DNA of 58,978 nucleotides from Nitrospirota bacterium (GTDB taxonomy: Bacteria; Nitrospirota; Thermodesulfovibrionia; Thermodesulfovibrionales; UBA1546): assembly GCA_026387575.1 (NCBI GenBank), contig JAPLLK010000064.1:1-58978 (forward strand), given 5' to 3'. The number at the start of each line of letters is the position of its first letter. Within the stretch, counting starts at the first letter, position 1. Made by a program: the position numbers and the translations under genes. Positions 795-13,637 of this stretch are shown piece after piece. The notes beneath the pieces are model-generated. The model had not been told where the DNA came from, made no database searches, and was given only the letters and a program-made list of their open reading frames with translations.

Positions 795-2006
795 CTATTT
801 CCCCTCAATCTTCAAAAACTTCCTCTTCCCTGCCTTGAAAAGGTAAGTCCCGGACTTGAGTTTTGCGTCAGGATTGTCGCATTTTTTGTCATCAATTGTA
901 ACACCGCCCTGCTTTATAAGCCTCATTGCCTCGCCTGTGCTTGAGCAGAGACCTGAGAGTTTCATTATCTTCGGAACCCACATCTCATCGTCTTCCCATT
1001 TAAGCTCAAAAACAGGTATCTCATCAGGCATTCCCTTATCCTTAAAAATATGCCCGAATTCTTCTTTGGCTTTCAAGGCATCATCTTTTCCCCAGTATCT
1101 TTCTACAATCTCCAGTGCAAGATTTTCTTTGGCGGTTTTAGGATGGATAGCGCCTTTTTCTATTCCCTTCTTCAGTGCGCTGAGTTCATCAATTGATATA
1201 TGGCTCAGAAGTTCATAGTACCTGAGCATGAGGGTATCGTTTATTGACATTACCTTTCCGAACATATCCTTTGGCTGTTCCGTAATCCCGATGTAATTTC
1301 CAAGGCTCTTTGACATCTTGTTCACGCCGTCCAGTCCCTCAAGCAAAGGCATGAGAACAACAGCCTGCTCTTCAACCCCCATTTTCCTCTGCAAAGTTCT
1401 TCCCATAAGTATATTGAACTTCTGATCTGTGCCTCCAAGTTCAACATCTGCTTTCAGATGTACAGAGTCGTATCCCTGAAACAGAGGATAATAGAATTCA
1501 AGTATTGTTATGTCCTGCTGGCTTTCAAATCTTTTCTTGAAATCCTCTCTTTCAAGCATCCTTGCAACTGTCTGCATTGAGCCAAGTCCGACAATATCCA
1601 TAACGCTCATCTTTGTGAGCCACTCGCTGTTAAATAGCACCTTTGTTTTTTTAGGATCCAATATCTTAAATATCTGCTCTCTGTATGTCCTGGCGTTTTT
1701 TAAAACATCTTCCTTTGTCAGCGGTTTTCTCACCTCTGACCTGCCGGTAGGATCTCCAATCATTCCTGTGAAATCACCGATAATAAATAATATCTCATGC
1801 CCCAGTTCCTGAAACTGTCTCATCTTTTCAAGCAGCACTGTATGGCCGAGATGGATATCAGGAGCAGTTGGGTCAAACCCTGCCTTTATCTTTAAAGGAG
1901 TGTTCTTTTTTACAGACTTCTCAAATTTGGCAAGGAGCTCTTTTTCGCTGATTACTTCAACAGCCCCTCTTTTGATTATCTCAAGTTGTTTCTCAGGTGT
2001 AAGCAT
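795..2006 (-). CDS. tyrS: Tyrosyl-tRNA synthetase
   Basis: [13 protein letters not shown] (HIGH), GGTDQ, KMSKS and a C-terminal S4-like domain. Confidence 0.97.
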
Positions 2007-2117: not shown

Positions 2118-2258
2118 ATGGGAACATATACTACATACCATCCTCACAAGATTAAAAGGAAACGGACACACGGCTTCCTTGAGCGCATGAGTTCAAAGGG
2201 AGGACGCAAGGTCATTCAAAGAAGAAGGGCAAAGGGCCGGAAGAAACTGGCCGTTTAA
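2118..2258 (+). CDS. rpmH: 50S ribosomal protein L34
   Basis: [46 protein letters not shown], with a GGAG RBS before ATG 2118. Confidence 0.96.
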
Positions 2259-2345
2259 TCTTTGATTCCTTATCGCAGTCGGGGCTTTACACCTATGAAC
2301 CTTATTAATAATGTGAGCGGCTCTGATGCATACAGTGGAGAGTGC

Positions 2346-2570
2346 ATGGCGGGAGATATAATTAAAATTATTTTATTAGGGGCTATAAAGCTCTATAAAT
2401 ATGCAATCTCGCCATTATTGCCTGACAGTTGCCGGTTTGTGCCTACCTGTTCTGAATATTCGGCAGAGGCAATAGAAAAATACGGCGCTGTAAAGGGCAG
2501 CTACCTCTCATTGAAGAGAATACTAAAATGCCATCCGTTTCATAGCGGCGGCTATGACCATGTAAGGTAA
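2346..2570 (+). CDS. yidD: Membrane protein insertion efficiency factor YidD
   Basis: [22 protein letters not shown]...[14 protein letters not shown], with a GGAG RBS before ATG 2346. Confidence 0.93.
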
Positions 2571-2578
2571 ACAGAATA

Positions 2579-4168
2579 ATGGGAACAGAAAAAAGAACAT
2601 TAATAGCTATAGTCCTTTCAATAATCATCCTTCTTGGGTATCAGTTTTTATTTCCTCCTCAGCCGCAGAAGCAACCGGCAACCGAACAGGCAAAAGAAGA
2701 AAAGAAAGAAAATAAAGTGCAGGAGACTGTCAAGCCTGTTTCCGTTCCTGCTTCAAAACCAACAGTATCCCCAACAGAAGAAAAAGAAGTCAGGATTGAA
2801 ACAGGCCTTTATTCTGCAACTTTTTCGTCAATAGGCGGAACGATAAAAAAATGGGAATTAAAAAAGTATAAAGATAAAGAAGGGCTGTCTGTGGTCCTTC
2901 AGCAGGGACAGAGCGTTTATCAACCTCTAAGCATGGGGTCCCAGAATAATTTTAATCTTGCAAAGGTAAGTTTTAGAATCTCAGGCAGAGACCTGAACCT
3001 TGATGAAAACACAAACACAGGCGCCATTGTTTTTGAATATGCAACCTCCGAATCTTCCATAAGAAGAACTTACACTTTTTATAATGACAGCTACAAGATT
3101 GACCTTAAGGATGAAGTTGCGGGGTTGCCTGAATACTGGATAACGCCCGGCACTGACTTCGGTATTTATGACAAAAAAGACAAGTCAGCGCATCTCGGCC
3201 CTGTACTACTTAAAGATGCAGAGAAAATAGAGTTTGACGCAAAAAAACTGAGCGAGACTAAAAGCTATCAGGGCAGGCTGAAATGGATTGCTCAGGAGGA
3301 TAAATATTTCTTTTCAGCTATTGTGCCTGTAACTCAGATGGATGAGGCAAAGGCATGGAAAGTTCAGGATGCGTCAGTTATCGCGTTCAAGGGAAAATCC
3401 GGCATTAATAATTTTATCGTTTATGCCGGGCCGAAAGAACACGACACCCTAAAAAAATTAAATGTCGGGCTTGAGCACATCATTGATTTCGGCTTTTTCT
3501 CTATCATATCAAGACCGCTGTTCTGGCTTATGAAATTCTTTCATAACTTCATGGGGAATTACGGATGGGCCATAGTGCTTTTGACAATAGTAACACGAAT
3601 TCCATTTATCCCGCTTCTAAACAAAAGTCAGGCATCAATGAAAAAGATGCAGGAAATCCAGCCCAAAATGGCTGAGATAAAAGAAAAATATAAGAAGGAC
3701 CCGCAGAGGATGCAGAAGGAAACAATGGAGCTTTACAAAAAACACAAGGTAAACCCCCTTGGGGGCTGCCTTCCTATGCTGCTGCAGATTCCTGTATTCT
3801 TTGCGTTATATAAGATATTATCAATCGCTATTGAATTGAGAGGCGCACCGTTCCTGCTCTGGATAACAGACCTCTCAGGCCCGGACACGCTTTTCGGGCA
3901 CATCCCTTCATGGTTCCCTTTGATTGGCGGTTTCGCTGTCGGTCCACTACCGATTGCCATGGGGATTACAATGGTCATCCAGCAGAAAATGACACCTTCA
4001 TCAGCCGACCCTGCCCAGCAGAAGATGATGATGCTCATGCCGATTATATTTACATTCATGTTCCTTAACTTTGCGTCAGGACTCGTACTTTACTGGCTGG
4101 TAAATAACCTGCTTTCAATTGCTCAGCAGTTTCATGTGAACAGAAAACTTGCGAAAGAAAAAGCGTAA
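2579..4168 (+). CDS. yidC: Membrane protein insertase YidC
   Basis: N-terminal TM, large periplasmic domain, GNYGWAIVLLT, GGCLPMLLQIPVF and ASGLVLYW. Confidence 0.97.
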   Translation: MGTEKRTLIAIVLSIIILLGYQFLFPPQPQKQPATEQAKEEKKENKVQETVKPVSVPASKPTVSPTEEKEVRIETGLYSATFSSIGGTIKKWELKKYKDKEGLSVVLQQGQSVYQPLSMGSQNNFNLAKVSFRISGRDLNLDENTNTGAIVFEYATSESSIRRTYTFYNDSYKIDLKDEVAGLPEYWITPGTDFGIYDKKDKSAHLGPVLLKDAEKIEFDAKKLSETKSYQGRLKWIAQEDKYFFSAIVPVTQMDEAKAWKVQDASVIAFKGKSGINNFIVYAGPKEHDTLKKLNVGLEHIIDFGFFSIISRPLFWLMKFFHNFMGNYGWAIVLLTIVTRIPFIPLLNKSQASMKKMQEIQPKMAEIKEKYKKDPQRMQKETMELYKKHKVNPLGGCLPMLLQIPVFFALYKILSIAIELRGAPFLLWITDLSGPDTLFGHIPSWFPLIGGFAVGPLPIAMGITMVIQQKMTPSSADPAQQKMMMLMPIIFTFMFLNFASGLVLYWLVNNLLSIAQQFHVNRKLAKEKA

Positions 4169-4222
4169 TCGCTAAAGCTCACTGGCAGCGTACTCGCCGT
4201 CCAGCGCAGCGTTTTGTTAAAA
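4164..4222 (-). mobile_element. attC site of the toxin-antitoxin cassette (R' box degenerate)
   Basis: Minus strand directly after the toxin stop reads TTTTAAC-AAAACGCTGCGCTGGACGGCGAGTACGCTGCCAGTGAGCTTTAGC-GATTACG, an imperfect palindrome with an AAC inverse core. Confidence 0.7.
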
Positions 4223-4513
4223 TTATTTTAATTGTTTTTTTATCCAGGCAGGATTTCTACGGCAATCAAGAATCGCATAAACCAATGTTTCAGCATCAGA
4301 TAATTTATAATAAATGGCAAACGGAAAACGTTTTGAAAGCATGCGGTGATAACCGAAGTATACGGGATGGATTCCGGCGTAAACTTGCAAGGAATCAATG
4401 TCAGAAAATAGAGAGTCTATAAAATAATTCCCGAGGCCGACTGATTGTTTATCATAAAAATAAAATCCATCGATCAAGTCTTGTGACGCGGATTCAAGAA
4501 TACGAATTTTCAT
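4223..4513 (-). CDS. RelE/ParE-family toxin
   Basis: 96 aa; MKIRILESASQDL...HRMLSKRFPFAIYY...VYAILDCRRNP. Overlaps the upstream small ORF by 4 nt. Confidence 0.85.
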   Translation of the reverse strand: MKIRILESASQDLIDGFYFYDKQSVGLGNYFIDSLFSDIDSLQVYAGIHPVYFGYHRMLSKRFPFAIYYKLSDAETLVYAILDCRRNPAWIKKQLK

Positions 4514-4722
4514 TTGCAGGATTTTCTAATTCTTTCTTTTTCTCCATCCCAAGCATTAAATTTTTCTTTGCCCTTGGCCACAGATTTTTCGCGCTGAGAT
4601 AAAATATCTTTATGCCATGATGGTGAAGCGACTGCATTTGCATGTTTACATAAATCATCCCACAGTAATTCCATAGCCCGAATTTTATCCCTTGTTGTCA
4701 TTTGGTCGAGTTGTAATACCAT
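4510..4722 (-). CDS. Addiction-module antitoxin (TIGR02574-like)
   Basis: 70 aa; MTTRDKIRAMELLWDDL...SPSWHKDILSQRE. Coupled to the downstream ParE-like toxin. Confidence 0.8.
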   Translation of the reverse strand: MVLQLDQMTTRDKIRAMELLWDDLCKHANAVASPSWHKDILSQREKSVAKGKEKFNAWDGEKERIRKSCK

Positions 4723-4837
4723 ATACTTTCACCTCGCATTTTTTTATTAAAGCATATATGTATATTTTTTAATATTTTAGAGTAAAAAGTCAAAGCTCTC
4801 GGCTTTCGATTTCTTAATTTTCTTCATTATAATTTAC

Positions 4838-4927
4838 ACACAACGACCGAAATGAAGCGCAGGGCACAGACCTGAAACTGAAAACTAACAAGCGTTATTC
4901 CCTGTCGCCTCGATTTTATTGTTGTAC
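4838..4927 (-). mobile_element. attC site (90 bp)
   Basis: Minus strand GTACAAC-AATAAAATCGAGGCGACAGGG...CCCTGCGCTTCATTTCGGTC-GTTGTGT: AAC/GTT ends and pairing arms with extra-helical bases. Confidence 0.75.
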
Positions 4928-4980
4928 ACTGTCTTATTTATGTTTTAATGGTTGCTGGCCCTATTTCCCCAGTTGCATGT

Positions 4981-5220
4981 TTACCATGCTGAAAGCAATT
5001 CCCAGCCTTTGCTCAAATAGGAATCCTCAATGGCGTTTTCAGCAAAAAATGGGTAAATAAGCCATGATATTCCAAATGTAATTGCAGCAAGAACCAGAGA
5101 AATTATAAAATGCTTCCATGCGCCATGTTTTGCAAAATAAAGAGGTCCGAATAGAAAAGTCCACAGTGCCGGATGGCTTGTTTCAACTCTATAGTCATTT
5201 ATAGGATTACGAAATGTCAT
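4981..5220 (-). CDS. Small membrane protein (DUF2628-like), gene cassette
   Basis: 79 aa, hydrophobic; WTFLFGPLYF...YLSKGW. GGGAGG RBS; bounded by attC sites. Confidence 0.65.
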   Translation of the reverse strand: MTFRNPINDYRVETSHPALWTFLFGPLYFAKHGAWKHFIISLVLAAITFGISWLIYPFFAENAIEDSYLSKGWELLSAW

Positions 5221-5305
5221 CTTAAAATTCCTCCCTTGCTCTTACAGCATACAACTTGCTGATAGACGACAATGCCGTCTTTTTGTTCATTATTTTTTTA
5301 TATTC

Positions 5306-5369
5306 GTACAACGTGGAGGTTCAGTGGGAGCCGGCTTTTTCGGCGATCCACTGCAGCCGATGGTTAGAA
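5306..5369 (-). mobile_element. attC site (64 bp)
   Basis: Minus strand TTCTAAC-CATCGGCTGCAGTGGATCGCCG-AAAAAG-CCGGCTCCCACTGAACCTCCAC-GTTGTAC, 7 nt after the stop of the upstream gene. Confidence 0.82.
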
Positions 5370-5376
5370 GGTTTCA

Positions 5377-5829
5377 TTATTGTCCTAGAATCATGTTTGG
5401 TATGTTTTTCTTTTGCCACTCTTTGCCTTCATTGGATATATTTGTAATGACTACGCCCCCTTCCGTTACAAGGGTAATTTTGGGCTTAACCTGATCGCGA
5501 AAATCGATGGTGCCAGAAGCCGTTGTTCCATACTGATTTTTCCCTTTGATTTGATGCACGCCCTTAGAAACAATCTGTTTTTCAACGACAAGATAAACTT
5601 GGGCTTGAGTCAGTATTCCTATACCTGCTATGCCTTCAAAAATACTAACGATATCGAGTGACGTGCCAGTATATTCCAAGTGACCAATGATCGGGGGTTT
5701 GTAAGATTTGTTATCTATTTTGAATTCTATGGCTATGTTTGTGCCGTAGCCAGAATCTGGATCACCCGCAAAACATACTGAATGGGCTGCAAAGATTATG
5801 ATGAAGCACAACGAGATTCTCCTAATCAT
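5377..5829 (-). CDS. Hypothetical exported protein, gene cassette
   Basis: Signal peptide MIRRISLCFIIIFAAHSVCFA; AAGGAG RBS; preceded by core site GTTAGAA (5845-5839), which complements its own attC inverse core. Confidence 0.7.
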   Translation of the reverse strand: MIRRISLCFIIIFAAHSVCFAGDPDSGYGTNIAIEFKIDNKSYKPPIIGHLEYTGTSLDIVSIFEGIAGIGILTQAQVYLVVEKQIVSKGVHQIKGKNQYGTTASGTIDFRDQVKPKITLVTEGGVVITNISNEGKEWQKKNIPNMILGQ

Positions 5830-5969
5830 ATTCTCTCCTTCTAACAATTACTATAGGAACCGTCGTATTTTCTGAAAACTGATTAGAATATAGCATACCT
5901 TACAGATTTTCTAAAGAGAAAAAGTTGTATAAAATCAATTATGGGGTAGTTTCACTATTTAAATTATTA

Positions 5970-6110
5970 GGGACACATCCCATATTTTTCTTCTCTGATT
6001 TCTTCGTTGTTTTCCATAAAAAGTTTAACACAAATACTCGCTAAAGTTTCTCTCCATCTTTAAAGAAATCTTCCGATGCAGCTATTTTTAAGAAATATGG
6101 GATGTGTCCC
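5970..6110. repeat. Perfect 18-bp inverted repeat pair (REP/MITE-like)
   Basis: GGGACACATCCCATATTT (5970-5987) and AAATATGGGATGTGTCCC (6093-6110). Confidence 0.8.
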
Positions 6111-6230
6111 CAGTTTTCCCATATTATTGTAGATTATAGAAATCAAAGACGGGATAGGCAAGAAAAAGTATCCATCCTGAAATTATTCCAAAATCCCGGA
6201 TTCATCATCTTCTAAGTTATACTATTAATC

Positions 6231-7613
6231 ATGATTCTTGACGACACCATAGCCGCCGTCTCAACTCCTCCCGGCGAAGGCGGAATCGGCATTGTCAGGC
6301 TCACAGGAAAAGACGCAATAAAAATAGCAGACAGGCTATTTAATTCTTCAAAAGGCAAAACCCTCTTTGATTCAGCTTCGCACAGAATAATCTATGGCTT
6401 TATAAAAGACTCATCCACAGGCGAAACAGTGGATGAGGTGCTGGTCTCAATAATGCGCTCGCCTAATACCTACACCAGAGAGGATATTGTTGAGATAAAC
6501 TGCCACGGCGGGATGTCCCCTCTGAGAAATGTACTTGAACTTGCGGTTAAACATGGCGCACGGCTTGCTGAACCCGGAGAGTTCACAAAAAGGGCCTTTT
6601 TAAACGGAAGGATTGACCTGAGTGAGGCAGAGGCCGTGCTTGACCTCATAAGGGCAAAGACAGATGAGTCGCGAAGAATCGCCCTTGAACAGCTCAGAGG
6701 CAGGCTCTCTGAAAAAATTCTAAATCTCAGAGAGCAGCTTACAAAGATATGCGTCTTCATCGAGGCTTGCATAGATTTTCCGGAAGAGGACATAGAGCTT
6801 GCATCGAAGAAGGAAATCATTGAATCAGCAGAGACAATCCTGAAAGAGCTTGCGTCCCTTCTAAAAAGTTACGATGAAGGCAGATTTTTCAGAGAAGGGC
6901 TTGCAGCGGCAATCGTTGGAAAGCCTAATGTCGGAAAATCTTCTCTCCTAAATGCGCTTCTTCAGAAAGACAGGGCGATTGTCACAGATACCCCCGGCAC
7001 AACAAGGGACACAATTGAAGAATATCTGAATATCAACGGCTTGCCTCTTCGCATAATTGATACAGCAGGGATAAGAGAATCGCATGACATGGCAGAGAAA
7101 GAAGGAATTAAAAGAAGCATCAGGGCAATGGAAGATGCGGATTTAGTCATAGCTGTTATTGACGGCAGTGAGCCTCTGAAAGATGAAGACATTGAGGTGC
7201 TCGGAAAGACAAGAGGCAAAAACACAATAATAGTTATTAATAAATCTGACCTGCTGGTACATGGAAAGACTGCTTCACAGCTTGCGACCTATACCTCCAC
7301 AATATTAGAGGTGTCTGCAACACGCGGAGACGGACTGGAGAAACTGAAAGAAAGCATATTCCGGTCTTCGGTTAAAAATTGGGAAGAGCAGAAGGAAGGT
7401 GTTATCGTTACGAACCTAAGGCATAAGATTGCAATTCAGGCCGCTTATGATTCTCTCAAGGATGCGATTAAGGCAATTGAAACTGACAAGCCGCTTGAGA
7501 TAATTGCAATTGAATTCAGAGATGCGCTTGACAGGCTCGGAGAGATTGTAGGCGCTGTAACAACAGATGATATCCTCAACAGGATATTCAGCGATTTCTG
7601 CATTGGAAAGTAA
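6231..7613 (+). CDS. mnmE: tRNA modification GTPase MnmE/TrmE
   Basis: DTIAAVSTPPGEGGIGIVR, GKPNVGKSS, GTTRD, DTAG, NKSD and C-terminal FCIGK. Confidence 0.98.
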   Translation: MILDDTIAAVSTPPGEGGIGIVRLTGKDAIKIADRLFNSSKGKTLFDSASHRIIYGFIKDSSTGETVDEVLVSIMRSPNTYTREDIVEINCHGGMSPLRNVLELAVKHGARLAEPGEFTKRAFLNGRIDLSEAEAVLDLIRAKTDESRRIALEQLRGRLSEKILNLREQLTKICVFIEACIDFPEEDIELASKKEIIESAETILKELASLLKSYDEGRFFREGLAAAIVGKPNVGKSSLLNALLQKDRAIVTDTPGTTRDTIEEYLNINGLPLRIIDTAGIRESHDMAEKEGIKRSIRAMEDADLVIAVIDGSEPLKDEDIEVLGKTRGKNTIIVINKSDLLVHGKTASQLATYTSTILEVSATRGDGLEKLKESIFRSSVKNWEEQKEGVIVTNLRHKIAIQAAYDSLKDAIKAIETDKPLEIIAIEFRDALDRLGEIVGAVTTDDILNRIFSDFCIGK

Positions 7614-7622
7614 AAGGAAGAA

Positions 7623-8243
7623 TTAACTTTTCACCGCTGCCGACATCTCAGCTTTTTTGATGGAACTTTGAAGGTATTCTTTGAACTTGGAAGACACCAG
7701 CCATTTAATCCCTAATTTCTCAGCCCATTTTATTATCCCCTGGTCTGCTGTTACAAGCAACGCATCAAGCTCCCGTGCAAGCAGAATGAGGTCAACATCC
7801 TCCTTGCTGTCAATAATCCCTTCTCTCAAAGCCTCTCTGTATTTTCTCCTCATGTCCTTAACAATCTCTTCTTCGCCTGCTTTTGAAACACCCCTCACAG
7901 CCTTCTCTGCCACCCTGAGCCCCTTATTAATCCTCTCTCTCATGTCTTCTATCAATTCATAGAGCAGAAATGCAGGGCATGTAAGCTCATGTTTCTTGGG
8001 AGGTTTTTGCTGAAGGACAATGAGCAGGTCTCCTGATATTTTTTCAGGTTCTATGAAATTAAGGAGTTCCTCAAATATGGATGGCGGCATATAGAACTCA
8101 AGGTGAGGAATCTGCGCTGCTAAGAACAGGAAGCTTTCAAGCGCCTCTGTAGGTGTCCTGCCAAGGCTCTCGCGAACCTCCGGATTTACAAAAAGGCTTG
8201 TATCTAAAACTACAGCACTCTTTTTAAATTTTGCCTGCCCCAT
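7623..8243 (-). CDS. RNA-free ribonuclease P (HARP, Aq_880 family PIN-domain nuclease)
   Basis: VLDTSLFVNPEVR, FYMPPSIFEEL, RERINKGLRVAE, RRKYREALREGIIDSKEDVDLILLA and TADQGI match the Aquifex Aq_880/HARP pattern, including the catalytic Asp residues and spike helix. Confidence 0.92.
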   Translation of the reverse strand: MGQAKFKKSAVVLDTSLFVNPEVRESLGRTPTEALESFLFLAAQIPHLEFYMPPSIFEELLNFIEPEKISGDLLIVLQQKPPKKHELTCPAFLLYELIEDMRERINKGLRVAEKAVRGVSKAGEEEIVKDMRRKYREALREGIIDSKEDVDLILLARELDALLVTADQGIIKWAEKLGIKWLVSSKFKEYLQSSIKKAEMSAAVKS

Positions 8244-9537
8244 GAAGTTTGAACGTATATGTATTCCAGTTATTGCAGCTCGGGCACCTGCCGGACCAGT
8301 CCTGTGATAAATAGCCGCAGGCTGAACACCAGTAAGGAAGCCGGAATGCTATTTTCATGTCCACAGCTTTTTTGAATTCCACCGCTGCCTTGTCGCATTG
8401 ATTGCGCCTGAGATAGAGGTCACCCATTATCTGGTAAAGTTCAGGGGACGCCATCCCGCTTGCATCAACGTAAGAAAATGTTTCAAATGCATCATCTATC
8501 ATCTCAAGCCTGTAATACAGCTTCCCAAGCAGAAATCTCAGCGCATGGTTCTGGGGCTTCTTTGACAGGCTGTTTCCATAAAGCCTTATGAGCCTTGCAG
8601 GTTCTCCGATGTTTATAAGCAAATCTTCAAGCCTTGCAAGAATTATCAAGGACGATGTCTGATCATAGCTCTTTTCAAGAAAGTCAACGGCATCTTCTGA
8701 CTCGCCTTCCCTGAGCATTACCTCGGCAAGTCCGATGTATGCCGGCACAAAATCTACATCCAGCCTGAGCAGTGTCCTAAACAGTTTCTTTGCCTTTTCA
8801 ATATCCCCGCGTTCAAGACTATAACGGCCGTATTCATACTTATACCCAAGGAGGTTCATCTGCTCCCTCTGCCGGTCCTTTTCTGTATGCTCATGTTTCA
8901 GTATCGTCTTCTGCACATCAACAAGCTCGTCCCATTTTTCATCCCTTTCGAGAATAGCCCTCTTTTTGTAGAGAGCGCTTAGGTTGTCAGTATCTATGTC
9001 AAGGATTTTCTCTATGTAATTCAGCGCCTCTGCCCACCTTCCTGTTTTTTCCATCAGGGTTTCAAGCGAGAACAGCACCTCGGGGTTCTGCTGGTTGGAA
9101 GCAAATGCCTTGTTATAGAAGTTCATTGCCTTCTGATAGTCTTCTTCCGAAGATGCGATGTCGCCGAGCCTGAGCAGCGCGTCAAGATGTTTCGGCTCTT
9201 CTGCAAGGATGCTTTCAAGCGATTCCTTTGCTTCATCCTCATTATGAGCAAGAAGCGCATTCAGCGCCTTTGAATACATCTCCTGAACCCTTGCCTCTTT
9301 TTTCTGCCTGCGCTGATACTGAAGATTATCTATAAAGCGTTTTGTGTCTCTTATAGTAAAGACAACGAGCATCGCAAGCGCTCCTGCGACACATGAAAAG
9401 AGTATCAGGGCTATCTTAGGAGTCTCATATGCGTCACCAAAAGGTATTTTGATTGTTGTTATTTCCTGATTGACATATGCAAAACCCCCAAGCCCTGCAA
9501 GAAAAAGAATGAATATAAATATTGCGATCTTCCCCAT
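8224..9537 (-). CDS. LapB-like TPR protein with N-terminal LapA-like membrane domain
   Basis: Two N-terminal TM segments, TPR repeats and C-terminal rubredoxin-type CSAC...WSGRCPSCNNW. Confidence 0.75.
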   Translation of the reverse strand: MGKIAIFIFILFLAGLGGFAYVNQEITTIKIPFGDAYETPKIALILFSCVAGALAMLVVFTIRDTKRFIDNLQYQRRQKKEARVQEMYSKALNALLAHNEDEAKESLESILAEEPKHLDALLRLGDIASSEEDYQKAMNFYNKAFASNQQNPEVLFSLETLMEKTGRWAEALNYIEKILDIDTDNLSALYKKRAILERDEKWDELVDVQKTILKHEHTEKDRQREQMNLLGYKYEYGRYSLERGDIEKAKKLFRTLLRLDVDFVPAYIGLAEVMLREGESEDAVDFLEKSYDQTSSLIILARLEDLLINIGEPARLIRLYGNSLSKKPQNHALRFLLGKLYYRLEMIDDAFETFSYVDASGMASPELYQIMGDLYLRRNQCDKAAVEFKKAVDMKIAFRLPYWCSACGYLSQDWSGRCPSCNNWNTYTFKLHGAGKI

Positions 9538-9539
9538 TG

Positions 9540-9899
9540 TCAGTTATGACCCTTTCCTTCTACAGGTATCCTCGGCGCATCAAGCCAGAGTTTTTCAAGT
9601 TGATAGTATGCCCTTGTTTCTTCTTCAAACACATGAATAATGATATCTCCGTAGTCCATTAACACCCAGTGGCTGTAATTCAGCCCTTCAATTCCGACAG
9701 GACGAATGCCTTTTTTTGAAAAGTTCTCTTCTATTGCCTCAGCAATTGCCCTGACATGTGTTGTGCTTTCTCCTGAGCAGATAATGAAAAAATCTGCAAT
9801 CACAGATAAGCCTTTCAGCTCGAGGACAAGCACACCCACGGCTTTCTTATCCATTGCTATCTTCGCTGCTGCAAGGGCTTTGGCTTTACTTTTTATTAA
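9540..9899 (-). CDS. rsfS: Ribosome silencing factor RsfS (start codon uncertain, see findings)
   Basis: ADFFIICSG, WVLMDYGDIIIHVF and YYQLEKLW; lies downstream of nadD. Confidence 0.93.
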   Translation of the reverse strand, partial: LIKSKAKALAAAKIAMDKKAVGVLVLELKGLSVIADFFIICSGESTTHVRAIAEAIEENFSKKGIRPVGIEGLNYSHWVLMDYGDIIIHVFEEETRAYYQLEKLWLDAPRIPVEGKGHN

Positions 9900-9924: not shown

Positions 9925-9990
9925 GGTTAGAAGTGGAAAGTTAGAAGTTCTAAATCTGAAATCCTTAACTTTCAACTTTTAACTTTATAA
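9925..9990. repeat. Degenerate heptamer tandem repeats in inverted arrangement
   Basis: GTTAGAA-GTGGAAA-GTTAGAA-GTTCTAA followed by AACTTTC-AACTTTT-AACTTTA. Confidence 0.55.
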
Positions 9991-10634
9991 ATCTTATGAG
10001 TAATTATATAGGATTCAACTTCTTCTGGCAATAGGTATTTTATACTTTTTCTGCGCTTTATCAGCTTTCTGATGCCGGTTGCTGATATCTCAACAGGCGT
10101 GATATGCATCATTATTATATCCCTGCCGTTCTTTAGCCTTGTTTTATAGGTTTGAAGCTTTGCATTATCAAGCTTTTTAAGGATATTTTTGTTTATCTTC
10201 AGATATGGTGAAGAGGCAAGTCCTGTGAATTTAAAAGCCGGCCTTGAGACCACTATAAAATCTGCAAGGCTGACGAGCTTATCGGGCTGCCACCAGTTAG
10301 GGATGTCAATAAAAGCATCAATGCCGGCTATAAAATAAAGCCTTGCCCCGGGATAAATGCGGCGCAGTTTTTCAAGAGTGTCTACGGAATAAGATTTATC
10401 CTTCTTTTTGTATTCAATATCAGAAACAGCAAAGGAGCGGTTTTTAGATATGCCAAGCCGCACCATCCTGTACCTGTGTTTTGCGTCTGCAAGCTCTGTG
10501 TCCTTGAGCGGAGGATTGCCTGACGGCACAAAGATAATCTTATTGAGTCCGAGTTTTTCCTTCACCTCTTCTGCGGCTGTGAGATGCCCGTAGTGGATTG
10601 GGTTAAAGGTCCCGCCGAATATGCCGAGTTTCAT
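9972..10634 (-). CDS. nadD: Nicotinate-nucleotide adenylyltransferase
   Basis: GIFGGTFNPIHYGH and ISATGIR. Confidence 0.96.
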   Translation of the reverse strand: MKLGIFGGTFNPIHYGHLTAAEEVKEKLGLNKIIFVPSGNPPLKDTELADAKHRYRMVRLGISKNRSFAVSDIEYKKKDKSYSVDTLEKLRRIYPGARLYFIAGIDAFIDIPNWWQPDKLVSLADFIVVSRPAFKFTGLASSPYLKINKNILKKLDNAKLQTYKTRLKNGRDIIMMHITPVEISATGIRKLIKRRKSIKYLLPEEVESYIITHKIYKVKS

Positions 10635-10832: not shown

Positions 10833-13637
10833 TTAGGAAGCCTTTTGCAAAATCATCTCAAGGTCATTGGGATCAAATGAAACTGCAAGGCTCCATTCGC
10901 CGAAACCGCCGTGCTGATTTACAGCCCTGCACCATTCATCTAAAAATACTCTTTTGGTTTTGTCCTGTTCGCTATCCTGCCCTTTGGTTTCAAGAATGAG
11001 ATGTTCGCCATTCTTTAACTTTATGATGAAATCGGGGAAATATCTTCTGATTACCCCTTGATAGTTGTAAAGAACAGTAAACCCTAAATGGTCATTCTTG
11101 ACGAATGATTCAACCGCCGCATTTTCGCTGATTGTTTTTGCTTCGAGATATTCCCATTTGCTGTCAACAACGGTGAAGTTGATGTGTGAATTTCCAAAAC
11201 TCTCACAGGGCTTGCTTGTCCACCATGTTCTAACGTCACTAGTTGAACGAATGGGGTGTTCCTTGTCAAATACCGGAGTGAGTTGCGTTGTGTTGTCTGC
11301 ACGAATTTCATTCCAGATGTGCTGAATGACCTTGTTCATATTCAGCATAATGAGTATCCGCTTGCGGACTTCATCCTGATTGAACAATGGATTCTTAATC
11401 TGGATTTTCTCCGAGTAAATAAACTGCTCAATGATACCGATTAACTGGATGAGAAATGTTTCCTTACTGCCTTTCCAGTCAGGTTTTTTCTCTGAATTGT
11501 AAATCGTTGATGCTATTCTGAAGATGATTGACTGCAAGCGAAATTTCTCTCCAATCTCTTTTAAATCAATCTCCGTCAATGCAGCTGGATTCGGTTTCCC
11601 GGCAATGATGGCGGCCAACTCAGCTTCTGTTATTGAGTCGTATGGGTTAATATCAAGCGGTTTTACATTCGATAGGTTGATCGTAAGCTGTGGTTTATAA
11701 ACATGATCAATTCGCAGAATGTTTGGGAACGAAATTTCATGTTCTACTTTTTCTTTAACTGGTTCAATCTTGGTTTTTGGTAGCGGCGGCGGAGGCGGAG
11801 GGCCGTCTGTTCCGCCTTCATGCGGCAGGAATGTAAATGGCACTCCGAAAATATTTACATACTCCGGTTCAAACAAGCCCGTTTCTTTGTTGACATCATA
11901 TTCTGTCCTTCTCAGGCCGCGTCCGACTACCTGCTCACATAACAACTGGCTGCTGAAAGCCCGTAAGCCCATTATGTGTGTAACAGTTTTTGCATCCCAT
12001 CCTTCGCTAAGCATACCTACGGAAATCACATTCTGAATCTGCTCACCTGGTTCACCAATCCGCCCAACCGTATTAACTGTGCATCTTATTAACTCTGCCT
12101 GTTGTTTCTTGGTAAGCTTCTTCTCTTTAGGCTCATCATTTTCATCGTCTGCTTCTTCTCCAGAAATATCAACTTCTTCTGTTTCTGCTTCGGCCTTTTC
12201 TAATATGCTGCTGTCAATTTGCAAAGTCCTTTGCGGATTGCACAAATCACCTAACCCTGCAACAGAAAGCAAAAATGAATCTCGATCAAAAGAGGTTTTT
12301 ATCCGTCCCGATGTATAAGTAGTGTTTGCAACGGTAATCATCACCGGCGGAATTTTATGTCTGGCCTTCTCCCAATCGTCTTTAGTGGCTTGCCAGTCCT
12401 TGCCCAAAAGCAGATAGGCATTTTTTATGAGGTCGGGAAGCGGGGCGCTGTCTTCAGCCTTTCGGTTGATGTCATCTTTCACAGTCTCATCCATGTAAAT
12501 GTGATACAAACGAGAACGCAGGTTATTATCCACGTTTCCATCATCACGGATGACCACCCTTGGCGTTTTTACCAATCCTGACTCAATCGCATCGTTCAAG
12601 CCGAAATCGCTGACTATCCATGAAAACAAGGCTTCTTCAGTCGCTTTTTTGCCGGAAGGCGCAAACGGAGTTGCCGATAAATCAAAGCAACGTATGATGC
12701 CCCTTGCCCTATGAACTCTGTCTAAACCGCCTACCCAAACAGTGCTTTCTTCAATGTCCTCTTTTTTTACGCCTCTTATCTTGCTCTCAGCCGGAACACG
12801 CCATGCATGGTGTGCTTCATCATTTATCACAATAAGGTTTGTTGCCGATGCCATGTCGCTTAAAACCTCACGCACATAAGCTTCGTCACTCTTTGAGCCG
12901 CGCTTGTCAACGGTTTTTTTCTTCCCTATCTTTTCTTCAGTGTCCCAAGCTAATGTATGCCAGTTAATGATTTTTATCTTGCCCTGCCGCAAAGTTTCCA
13001 TCAATCCCGAGGGCACAACATTAAATTCTTCGTAGTAATTTTCTTTGTCGAAAGGATTGAGAACTGACAAGCGGCTGCGAACGGTTAAGCCAGGAGCAAC
13101 AACCAACACATTTTTTGAGAACCGGATATCTTTGCTGTTGGTAACCTTGTTAAGCACTTGCCATGCAATGAGCATACTCATCACAATGGTCTTGCCTGAA
13201 CCCGTCGCCATCTTGCTGCACCAGCGACTGAAATCTCCGCCATCTCCTGGAATTTGGATTCCTGTTCTGTCTGCGTCCGGTGCCTCGGTTAGCCATATTA
13301 AGGTTTCAATCGCTTCCAGCTGGCAAAAGAAAAAGCGTTTGTCCTTTCTTTCTTCGGGGTCTTGCCAATGCTGCAATAATCTCTTGGTGATACCTGTAAC
13401 GCCAGAATAACCCTGTTCTCTCCACTTCACTATGCGCGGGCGGATGGTATTGACCAATTCTATTTCAATGAAAATACCGGGGTCGTCAAAAGCCCTTGAA
13501 CTCTCAGAAGCGACAATATAGCCAGCCGGTCTACGGCCACTCTGCAAAACAAATTCCCTTGTATCACGGAGATATTCCCAATACTGCCGAGGTTCTTCGT
13601 AAGGCGAGTTAATGATAAGCTTGTCTATCTTCTTCAT
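10833..13637 (-). CDS. Type III restriction-like helicase/endonuclease (Res; BPTD_3080-like)
   Basis: KMATGSGKT, NDEAHH, SAT, LSEGWD, EQVVGRGLRR and C-terminal YFPDF...LETKG (PD-(D/E)xK). Confidence 0.9.
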   Translation of the reverse strand: MKKIDKLIINSPYEEPRQYWEYLRDTREFVLQSGRRPAGYIVASESSRAFDDPGIFIEIELVNTIRPRIVKWREQGYSGVTGITKRLLQHWQDPEERKDKRFFFCQLEAIETLIWLTEAPDADRTGIQIPGDGGDFSRWCSKMATGSGKTIVMSMLIAWQVLNKVTNSKDIRFSKNVLVVAPGLTVRSRLSVLNPFDKENYYEEFNVVPSGLMETLRQGKIKIINWHTLAWDTEEKIGKKKTVDKRGSKSDEAYVREVLSDMASATNLIVINDEAHHAWRVPAESKIRGVKKEDIEESTVWVGGLDRVHRARGIIRCFDLSATPFAPSGKKATEEALFSWIVSDFGLNDAIESGLVKTPRVVIRDDGNVDNNLRSRLYHIYMDETVKDDINRKAEDSAPLPDLIKNAYLLLGKDWQATKDDWEKARHKIPPVMITVANTTYTSGRIKTSFDRDSFLLSVAGLGDLCNPQRTLQIDSSILEKAEAETEEVDISGEEADDENDEPKEKKLTKKQQAELIRCTVNTVGRIGEPGEQIQNVISVGMLSEGWDAKTVTHIMGLRAFSSQLLCEQVVGRGLRRTEYDVNKETGLFEPEYVNIFGVPFTFLPHEGGTDGPPPPPPLPKTKIEPVKEKVEHEISFPNILRIDHVYKPQLTINLSNVKPLDINPYDSITEAELAAIIAGKPNPAALTEIDLKEIGEKFRLQSIIFRIASTIYNSEKKPDWKGSKETFLIQLIGIIEQFIYSEKIQIKNPLFNQDEVRKRILIMLNMNKVIQHIWNEIRADNTTQLTPVFDKEHPIRSTSDVRTWWTSKPCESFGNSHINFTVVDSKWEYLEAKTISENAAVESFVKNDHLGFTVLYNYQGVIRRYFPDFIIKLKNGEHLILETKGQDSEQDKTKRVFLDEWCRAVNQHGGFGEWSLAVSFDPNDLEMILQKAS

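Follow-up and report, generated by a model that had tools for sequence, protein, structure and literature searches.

A predicted protein-only RNase P and the deletion of both ribozyme RNase P genes in a Nitrospirota bacterium of the order Thermodesulfovibrionales

The contig JAPLLK010000064.1 (C85 in our numbering) of the Nitrospirota assembly GCA_026387575.1 (genome G000) was analysed over all of its 58,978 nucleotides (nt), called the window below, and carries a gene for HARP, a predicted protein-only RNase P. This genome has lost both genes of the ribozyme RNase P, rnpA for the protein and rnpB for the RNA, from their ancestral sites; the HARP encoded behind lapB is intact and, as judged from its sequence, very probably the sole RNase P of the cell. 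An earlier note on this DNA had proposed that the ribozyme was lost and that the organism may rely on HARP alone, a proposal which the absence of rnpA and rnpB and the intact HARP support; its restriction to "this organism" holds for G000, but was too narrow, as the trait is shared by the entire family and over half of the order. Genomes, contigs, loci and families are denoted by G, C, L and f where they have to be told apart.

The emptied ribozyme loci and the HARP protein

The rnpA site lies between rpmH (2118..2258, plus strand; ATG 2118, TAA 2258), encoding the ribosomal protein L34 of 46 amino acids (aa) (PF00468, E value 2e-22; TIGR01030), and yidD (2346..2570, plus strand; ATG 2346; PF01809, E 5e-31). 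As the earlier note had counted, exactly 87 nt (2259..2345) separate the rpmH stop from the yidD start, and this is the position of rnpA in the relatives that keep it, immediately upstream of yidD in 8/8 loci. Its statement that no remnant is recognisable there was confirmed: a profile of the RnpA of eight relatives scores -2.6 bits in the spacer (E 1.6), while the same profile detects a real rnpA stub in the relative G153 (E 4e-8). By tblastn, too, the spacer revealed no remnant, the sole match being rpmH in another frame, and it gave no Rfam match. In 16 of the 17 loci of family f1 (the 17th was not measured), the L34 stop and the YidD motif are 164-204 nt apart, compared to 411-540 nt in the three measured loci carrying rnpA.

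The genome-wide checks that had been proposed gave no match in G000 to PF00825 for RnpA, nor to RF00010 or RF00011 for rnpB (RF00373 and RF02357 were not searched); positive controls for these three models matched in 10-11 of 14 cases. Searches of G000 with tblastn and with profiles of the relatives in nhmmer (best E 5.3) and hmmsearch (best E 0.16) likewise detected neither gene. An rnpA seen in G018 (L193, G018:C301) was set aside as likely foreign, as it lies beside dnaA on a contig of 1,127 nt in a genome whose own yidD locus is without rnpA.

Gene position provides a stronger test. In 6 of the 8 genuine loci of relatives, rnpB is flanked on one side by a LysR gene and on the other by a zinc-ribbon gene, which is accompanied by rnhA in some cases. 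The corresponding site of G000, outside the window on contig C44, is assembled continuously and is empty, with 37 nt (13262-13298) between the rnhA stop (13261) and the LysR ATG (13299). None of the 27 HARP-only genomes examined at this site gave an rnpB match; the site measures 46-252 nt in all 15 of them with both anchors located, and 574 nt in G091, which carries rnpB. Since both ancestral sites are assembled and empty, rnpA and rnpB were deleted in place, and an assembly gap is no explanation. Two rnpB candidates were rejected: an apparent match on C44 was the flanking LysR gene, which pointed to the deleted locus, and the rnpB of G005 (L194, G005:C85) is likely a contaminant, its neighbours being 34-47% identical to those of G000 despite the same genus.

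HARP (7623..8243, minus strand) is full-length with its acidic residues intact, as the earlier note had read it, comprising 206 aa with all mapped catalytic aspartates kept. It matches PF08745 with an E value of 9e-60 and 202 bits (cut-off 27) and TIGR03875 with 204.5 bits (cut-off 95.3), and forms the single PIN_5 domain of about 23 kDa expected of the family. Seven of its eight matches in the Protein Data Bank (PDB) are RNA-free RNase P, the best being 7e8k (E 6e-68). The residues D14, D145, D149, D151 and D167 together with R102, R110, R117, R132, R136 and R140 are invariant in 52/52 aligned homologues, 51 of which were chosen from the best 120 of 1,917 matches; the named ones among these best 120 are all Nitrospirota. 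Across the order, the aspartates, R132 and R136 are invariant in 37/37 HARPs. In alignments to 7e8k and 7f3e, D14, D145, D149, D167 and the six arginines fall on positions essential in AaHARP (Aq_880) and PbHARP (from Planctomycetes bacterium GWF2_40_8), as determined by mutagenesis (PMC8266387 and PMC9051087, respectively). K134 of the basic spike-helix is kept, and the C-terminal region, whose helix is needed for oligomers in the family, aligns up to residue 196. PbHARP and TcHARP, the nearest relatives with a solved structure, are able to cleave pre-tRNA in vitro (PMC9051087). Contigs of two groundwater or aquifer RNA runs also cover HARP; being mostly those of relatives, with DNA carry-over possible, they are not counted as evidence.

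We infer that HARP is probably active and essential in G000, where it would cut the 5' leaders off pre-tRNAs as a metal-dependent oligomer. By analogy to AaHARP and PbHARP, one dimer would hold the elbow of the tRNA through Arg110/117/132/136, while Asp14/145/149/167 and Arg102/140 of an adjacent dimer would carry out the cut where the acceptor stem ends.

Distribution and history of the switch

A set of 150 relatives of at least 90% completeness, taken from a larger group, was divided into 83 HARP-only, 17 dual and 47 ribozyme-only genomes and 3 with neither enzyme; rnpB was scanned in 149 of them, three f12 HARP-only genomes were rescanned, G018 was scored as HARP-only owing to its likely foreign rnpA contig, and G050 was classed as dual from its rnpB only. 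Families f1, f3, f5, f6, f7, f10 and f11 display HARP in 77/78 genomes, rnpB in 0/78 and rnpA in 1/78, the latter likely a contaminant. Families f2, f4 and f8 are devoid of HARP (0/36), f9 and f12 are mixed, and f13, with a single genome, is dual. In a sample of the phylum, HARP was present in 1/2 genomes of the other orders of the class and in 0/89 of other classes. The one positive genome from another order of the class, G241 (L195, L257, L295), has HARP behind lapB and no rnpB, and neither rnpA nor rpmH was found near its yidD, the locus that the search for rnpA covered; it is likely a further HARP-only lineage.

A species tree of 71 genomes was calculated from RpoB, RplJ and the N-terminus of RpoC (1,979 columns; IQ-TREE quick search, LG+G4) with Shimodaira-Hasegawa-like approximate likelihood ratio (SH-aLRT) support only. 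Its genomes were hand-chosen to span families and states, and 10 of the 80 searched were omitted (two without rpoB, eight not fetched). The tree contains at least six changes of the ribozyme state within the order, seven with G241, and six of the HARP state. The HARP-only groups are f3 with f5; f7 with f10 and f11 (support 86); G039; G027 with G060; G121 with G153 and G156; and f1 with f6, which are not resolved from the dual G031 and stand for one or two events. The family of G000 is separated from other HARP-only families by lineages keeping the ribozyme. A single HARP-only clade was rejected, as a tree in which the 33 HARP-only rows are made to form one group is worse by 1,009 log-likelihood units (approximately unbiased test, p 1.5e-5).

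Such change counts give no direction; we read the changes as losses because the genes that were kept occupy their ancestral positions at two unlinked loci, because the outgroup G176 has both genes, and because the HARP-only G153 keeps the 5' third of rnpA as a shortened stub between rpmH and yidD (L253:1286-1411), which suggests a recent loss. Thus, at least six separate ribozyme losses appear to have occurred in one order, and replicated loss with intermediates is well supported. As the other families of the order and the outgroup genome retain both genes at the ancestral sites, these losses are independent of that in the Aquificaceae, in agreement with the independent loss suggested in the earlier note.

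The HARP gene itself has likely undergone some transfer within the order, to judge by its tree (a short alignment with long branches flagged), which recovered f1 and f9, but placed f10, f12 and f6 together with some of f7 (100/99), in conflict with the species tree. In f12 (L196-L200) and f10 (L013, L021), HARP lies outside the lapB operon and mostly beside a gene for the RNA ligase Rnl3. These HARPs away from lapB group together against the species tree, which suggests that HARP and Rnl3 form a mobile two-gene unit there. Within the order, HARP and the ligase gene stand tail to tail in 47/133 loci, a set that holds duplicates, and no Rnl3 gene was found in G000.

An ancestor near the base of the Thermodesulfovibrionales would have gained HARP once and early, behind lapB as the last gene of the nadD-rsfS-lapB operon and probably together with the Rnl3 ligase. 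Some lineages would have stayed dual, the surviving dual genomes and the stub of G153 being intermediates, while others dropped HARP, in several losses, and at least six dropped the ribozyme. Many HARP-only lineages apparently live in ordinary groundwater, and each ribozyme loss would have been followed by a drift of the tRNA leaders away from the U(-1) of the ribozyme toward the A(-1) of HARP. As a joint account, which would make the order a replicate natural experiment on the exchange of a ribozyme for a protein, this history is moderately plausible to us. The family of G000 would also have lost the ligase, so that HARP would work here without it.

tRNA processing, rival explanations and gene neighbourhood

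Several observations weigh against HARP as the sole RNase P of G000. AaHARP carries the basic residues K119 and R123 where the HARP studied here is acidic (E126, D130). Moreover, PbHARP is weak, with about 6% cleaved in 20 min (PMC9051087), and four other bacterial HARPs of conserved sequence were inactive both in vitro and in E. coli (PMC9945441; PMC12153264), so conserved residues do not guarantee activity. A stands at -1 in 14 of 41 G000 tRNAs (34%), short of the majority of the Aquifex type, and CCA is encoded in 38/41, although CCA slowed one HARP about tenfold (PMC12153264). The assembly (1.63 Mb, 98 contigs, 43% guanine-cytosine (GC) content), finally, is 92.2% complete and revealed no tmRNA, no match to an SmpB motif, and, among the called tRNAs, no tRNA-Tyr, Thr(GGT), Thr(TGT) or Gly(TCC); the missing tmRNA and tRNAs are probably assembly gaps. 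In four HARP-only relatives we noted what we take to be tmRNA-like 3' ends. As a side observation, tRNA-Ser(CGA) was called twice in G000 with the same ends and flanks (C6:14131-14220 and C29:2388-2477), perhaps an assembly duplicate.

For comparison, A at -1 was reported for 38/44 tRNAs of Aquifex (86%) and for 15/49 of the dual Thermodesulfatator indicus (PMC12439589). Pooled over six HARP-only genomes we counted 65/229 (28%) versus 11/100 (11%) in three ribozyme-bearing ones; G at -1 occurred once versus nine times, and Watson-Crick pairs between -1 and 73 in 23% versus 41%. These tRNA sets are partial, with 30-44 genes each, four of them located mainly via the CCA pattern and the genes within a genome not independent; G023 was excluded from the pool as pattern-picked. 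A G-C pair at -1/73, His and Sec aside, was found in 0/41 tRNAs of G000 and 1/44 of G041 versus 6/100 in the three ribozyme-bearing genomes, all small numbers. Since U stays commonest at -1 in the HARP-only genomes (57%) and A there lies below their own upstream background of 35% A (29% in the ribozyme group), the shift looks like a relaxation of the ribozyme preference more than strong selection for A.

A pattern count of one tRNA class in 67 genomes gave A/(A+T) ratios of 0.52 in HARP-only (34), 0.29 in dual (10) and 0.245 in ribozyme-only genomes (23). The ratio was higher in the HARP-only partner in 7/7 hand-chosen contrasts (sign p 0.016; two individually below 0.05), whereas a stricter test on independent pairs was not significant (median p 0.125). 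Family f11 shows no shift (0.22), while f3 and f5 reach 0.74 and may be the most Aquifex-like lineages; in G023 (f5; L538-L546), A stands at -1 in 11/13 fetched tRNAs of a pattern-picked set, against a background of 24% A. A strong Aquifex-like coevolution of the leaders is thus rejected by the -1 counts in G000 and the pooled genomes, and a partial shift toward the A(-1) of HARP is suggestive. Loss of CCA as a requirement of HARP-only cells was rejected as well, with 29-43 matches to a T-arm plus CCA in 5/5 further HARP-only genomes; only in G041 (f11; L296-L325, L416-L427) is CCA nearly gone (2/44), unlike the other families examined.

Could something other than HARP do the work? A strongly diverged RNase P RNA, acting by itself or with a different protein, might leave HARP with a side job, and our large searches filtered more strictly, scoring few candidates in each genome (8-9 in the rnpB scan), and did not include the archaeal and type T models or PRORP. 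We consider this very improbable: the rnpB of the relatives is ordinary (169-340 bits), so an unrecognisable form must have arisen at least six times; RF00010 and RF00011 match even archaeal controls; and rnpA and rnpB vanish together, with HARP in 83/86 sampled genomes without both. It is hardly credible, too, that HARP is weak or inactive on pre-tRNA, with tRNAs nearly leaderless or trimmed by other RNases, even if inactive HARPs exist (PMC9945441), E. coli can cope with leaders as long as 7 nt (PMC12439589) and the leaders carry no more than a weak HARP signature. tRNA pairs in G000 are spaced by 2-4 nt, so their downstream members require 5' processing; the active-site residues are invariant in the 37/37 HARPs aligned across the order, and nearly every ribozyme-less genome has HARP. 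A relocation of rnpA and rnpB to the unassembled 8% of the genome, with HARP accessory as in archaea, would fit the 98 contigs and the missing tmRNA and tRNAs, but is already largely refuted and extremely unlikely, as the assembly covers both ancestral sites and neither holds its gene, family relatives of 95-100% completeness also lack both genes, the sole two matches among 19 family relatives are on foreign-looking contigs, and the single-contig HARP-only genomes G025, G041, G090 and G120 show no rnpA or rnpB match.

The earlier note had described HARP as overlapping the last gene of a nadD-rsfS-lapB run, and indeed its start side overlaps by 20 nt with a lapB-like gene for a TPR protein with a zinc ribbon (8224..9537, minus strand; PF18073 plus TPR families, the NCBIfam LapB models being below cut-off). 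This gene is preceded by rsfS (9540..9854, minus strand; PF02410) and a nucleotidyltransferase gene (9972..10634, minus strand; PF01467), which we take to be nadD from the gene order, and further upstream by a type III restriction Res-like gene (10833-13637, minus strand; PF04851). HARP follows lapB in 92/110 related loci, many of them short, and in 13/18 further loci. On its other side, mnmE (6231..7613, plus strand) faces HARP tail to tail at a distance of 9 nt, in the position taken by the Rnl3 ligase in many relatives. The closeness of HARP to the rnpA site, to which the earlier note had drawn attention, is real in the window, but incidental, mnmE being part of the HARP locus in just 22 of the same 110 loci.

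At the rnpA side, tyrS (795-2006, minus strand) in place of dnaA is the divergent neighbour of rpmH. yidC (2579..4168, plus strand; PF02096, PF14849) follows yidD. The adjacency of yidC and mnmE, assumed in the earlier note, does not hold here: the two are parted by an insertion of 2,062 nt (4169..6230) with four opposite, minus-strand open reading frames (ORFs) at 4223-5847, which stands outside the RNase P system. These encode a PF09720 antitoxin, an adjoining protein of 96 aa without Pfam match, a protein with a weak DUF2628 match and an orphan of 156 aa. The 96-aa protein is presumably RelE/ParE-like and would form an addiction-module pair with the antitoxin.

Comparison with known RNase P systems

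An RNA-based RNase P occurs almost universally, and the reason for its replacement in the Aquificaceae was named an open question in a review of 2024 (PMC10941002). From one case alone, chance, temperature and genome size cannot be told apart as causes; repeated losses with sisters keeping one or both enzymes make these ideas testable. Our data argue that a HARP-only cell needs neither extreme A(-1) leaders nor loss of encoded CCA nor the Rnl3 ligase, and suggest that it does not need high temperature either; the HARPs of the family of G000 are candidates for efficient enzymes at moderate temperature.

HARP and HARP-only Nitrospirae are already known; added here are the repeated loss, for which intermediates exist, and the suggestive partial shift of the leaders. 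Nitrospirae relying on HARP alone, among them Thermodesulfovibrio yellowstonii with neither ribozyme component, were in print in 2016, 2019 and 2021 (PMC4779614; PMC6380272; PMC8266387), with the statement that a few Nitrospirae genera encode HARP alone, for which RnpA was used as proxy (PMC6380272; repeated in PMC8266387). They share phylum and order with G000 as well as the presence of HARP and the absence of the ribozyme, while the passages of these papers available to us contain no locus-level deletions, tree or loss count. We found no account of repeated loss in this order in the literature; one might be contained in subscription papers or in the supplements published with papers of 2017 and 2019. 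The Thermodesulfovibrio genomes tabulated in 2025 have a GC content of 33-36% (PMC12153264), compared to 43% in G000, and many of the closest HARP relatives of G000, among the best 80 HARP loci, are titled as groundwater assemblies. The pair of HARP and Rnl3 (TIGR03875 plus TIGR01209; PMC12153264) is common in the order, while in G000 the ligase is absent and mnmE stands in its place; the same paper listed nine HARP-positive Thermodesulfovibrionales, one of them with the ligase.

AaHARP of Aquifex aeolicus is represented by the structures 7f3e and 8kd9. As is likely for the HARP of G000, AaHARP serves as the only RNase P of a genome in which rnpA and rnpB are missing, and the equivalents of its D7, D138, D142, D160/161, R125, K127 and R129 are conserved here. 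It is more distant (E 1e-46) than PbHARP or TcHARP and differs in the two basic positions and the far higher share of A(-1) described above. PbHARP (7e8k, 7e8o; PMC9051087) is the closest solved structure, aligning ungapped over 191 aa, and all nine of its named residues, including D151, D155 and D173, are conserved; it belongs to another phylum and has a long basic N-terminal extension, which is absent from the HARP of G000. The dual RNase P of T. indicus (PMC9945441; PMC12439589), in comparison, resembles the state of the 17 dual genomes, and its share of A at -1 is near that of our HARP-only genomes, but T. indicus keeps a working ribozyme, whereas in G000 both of its genes have been deleted.

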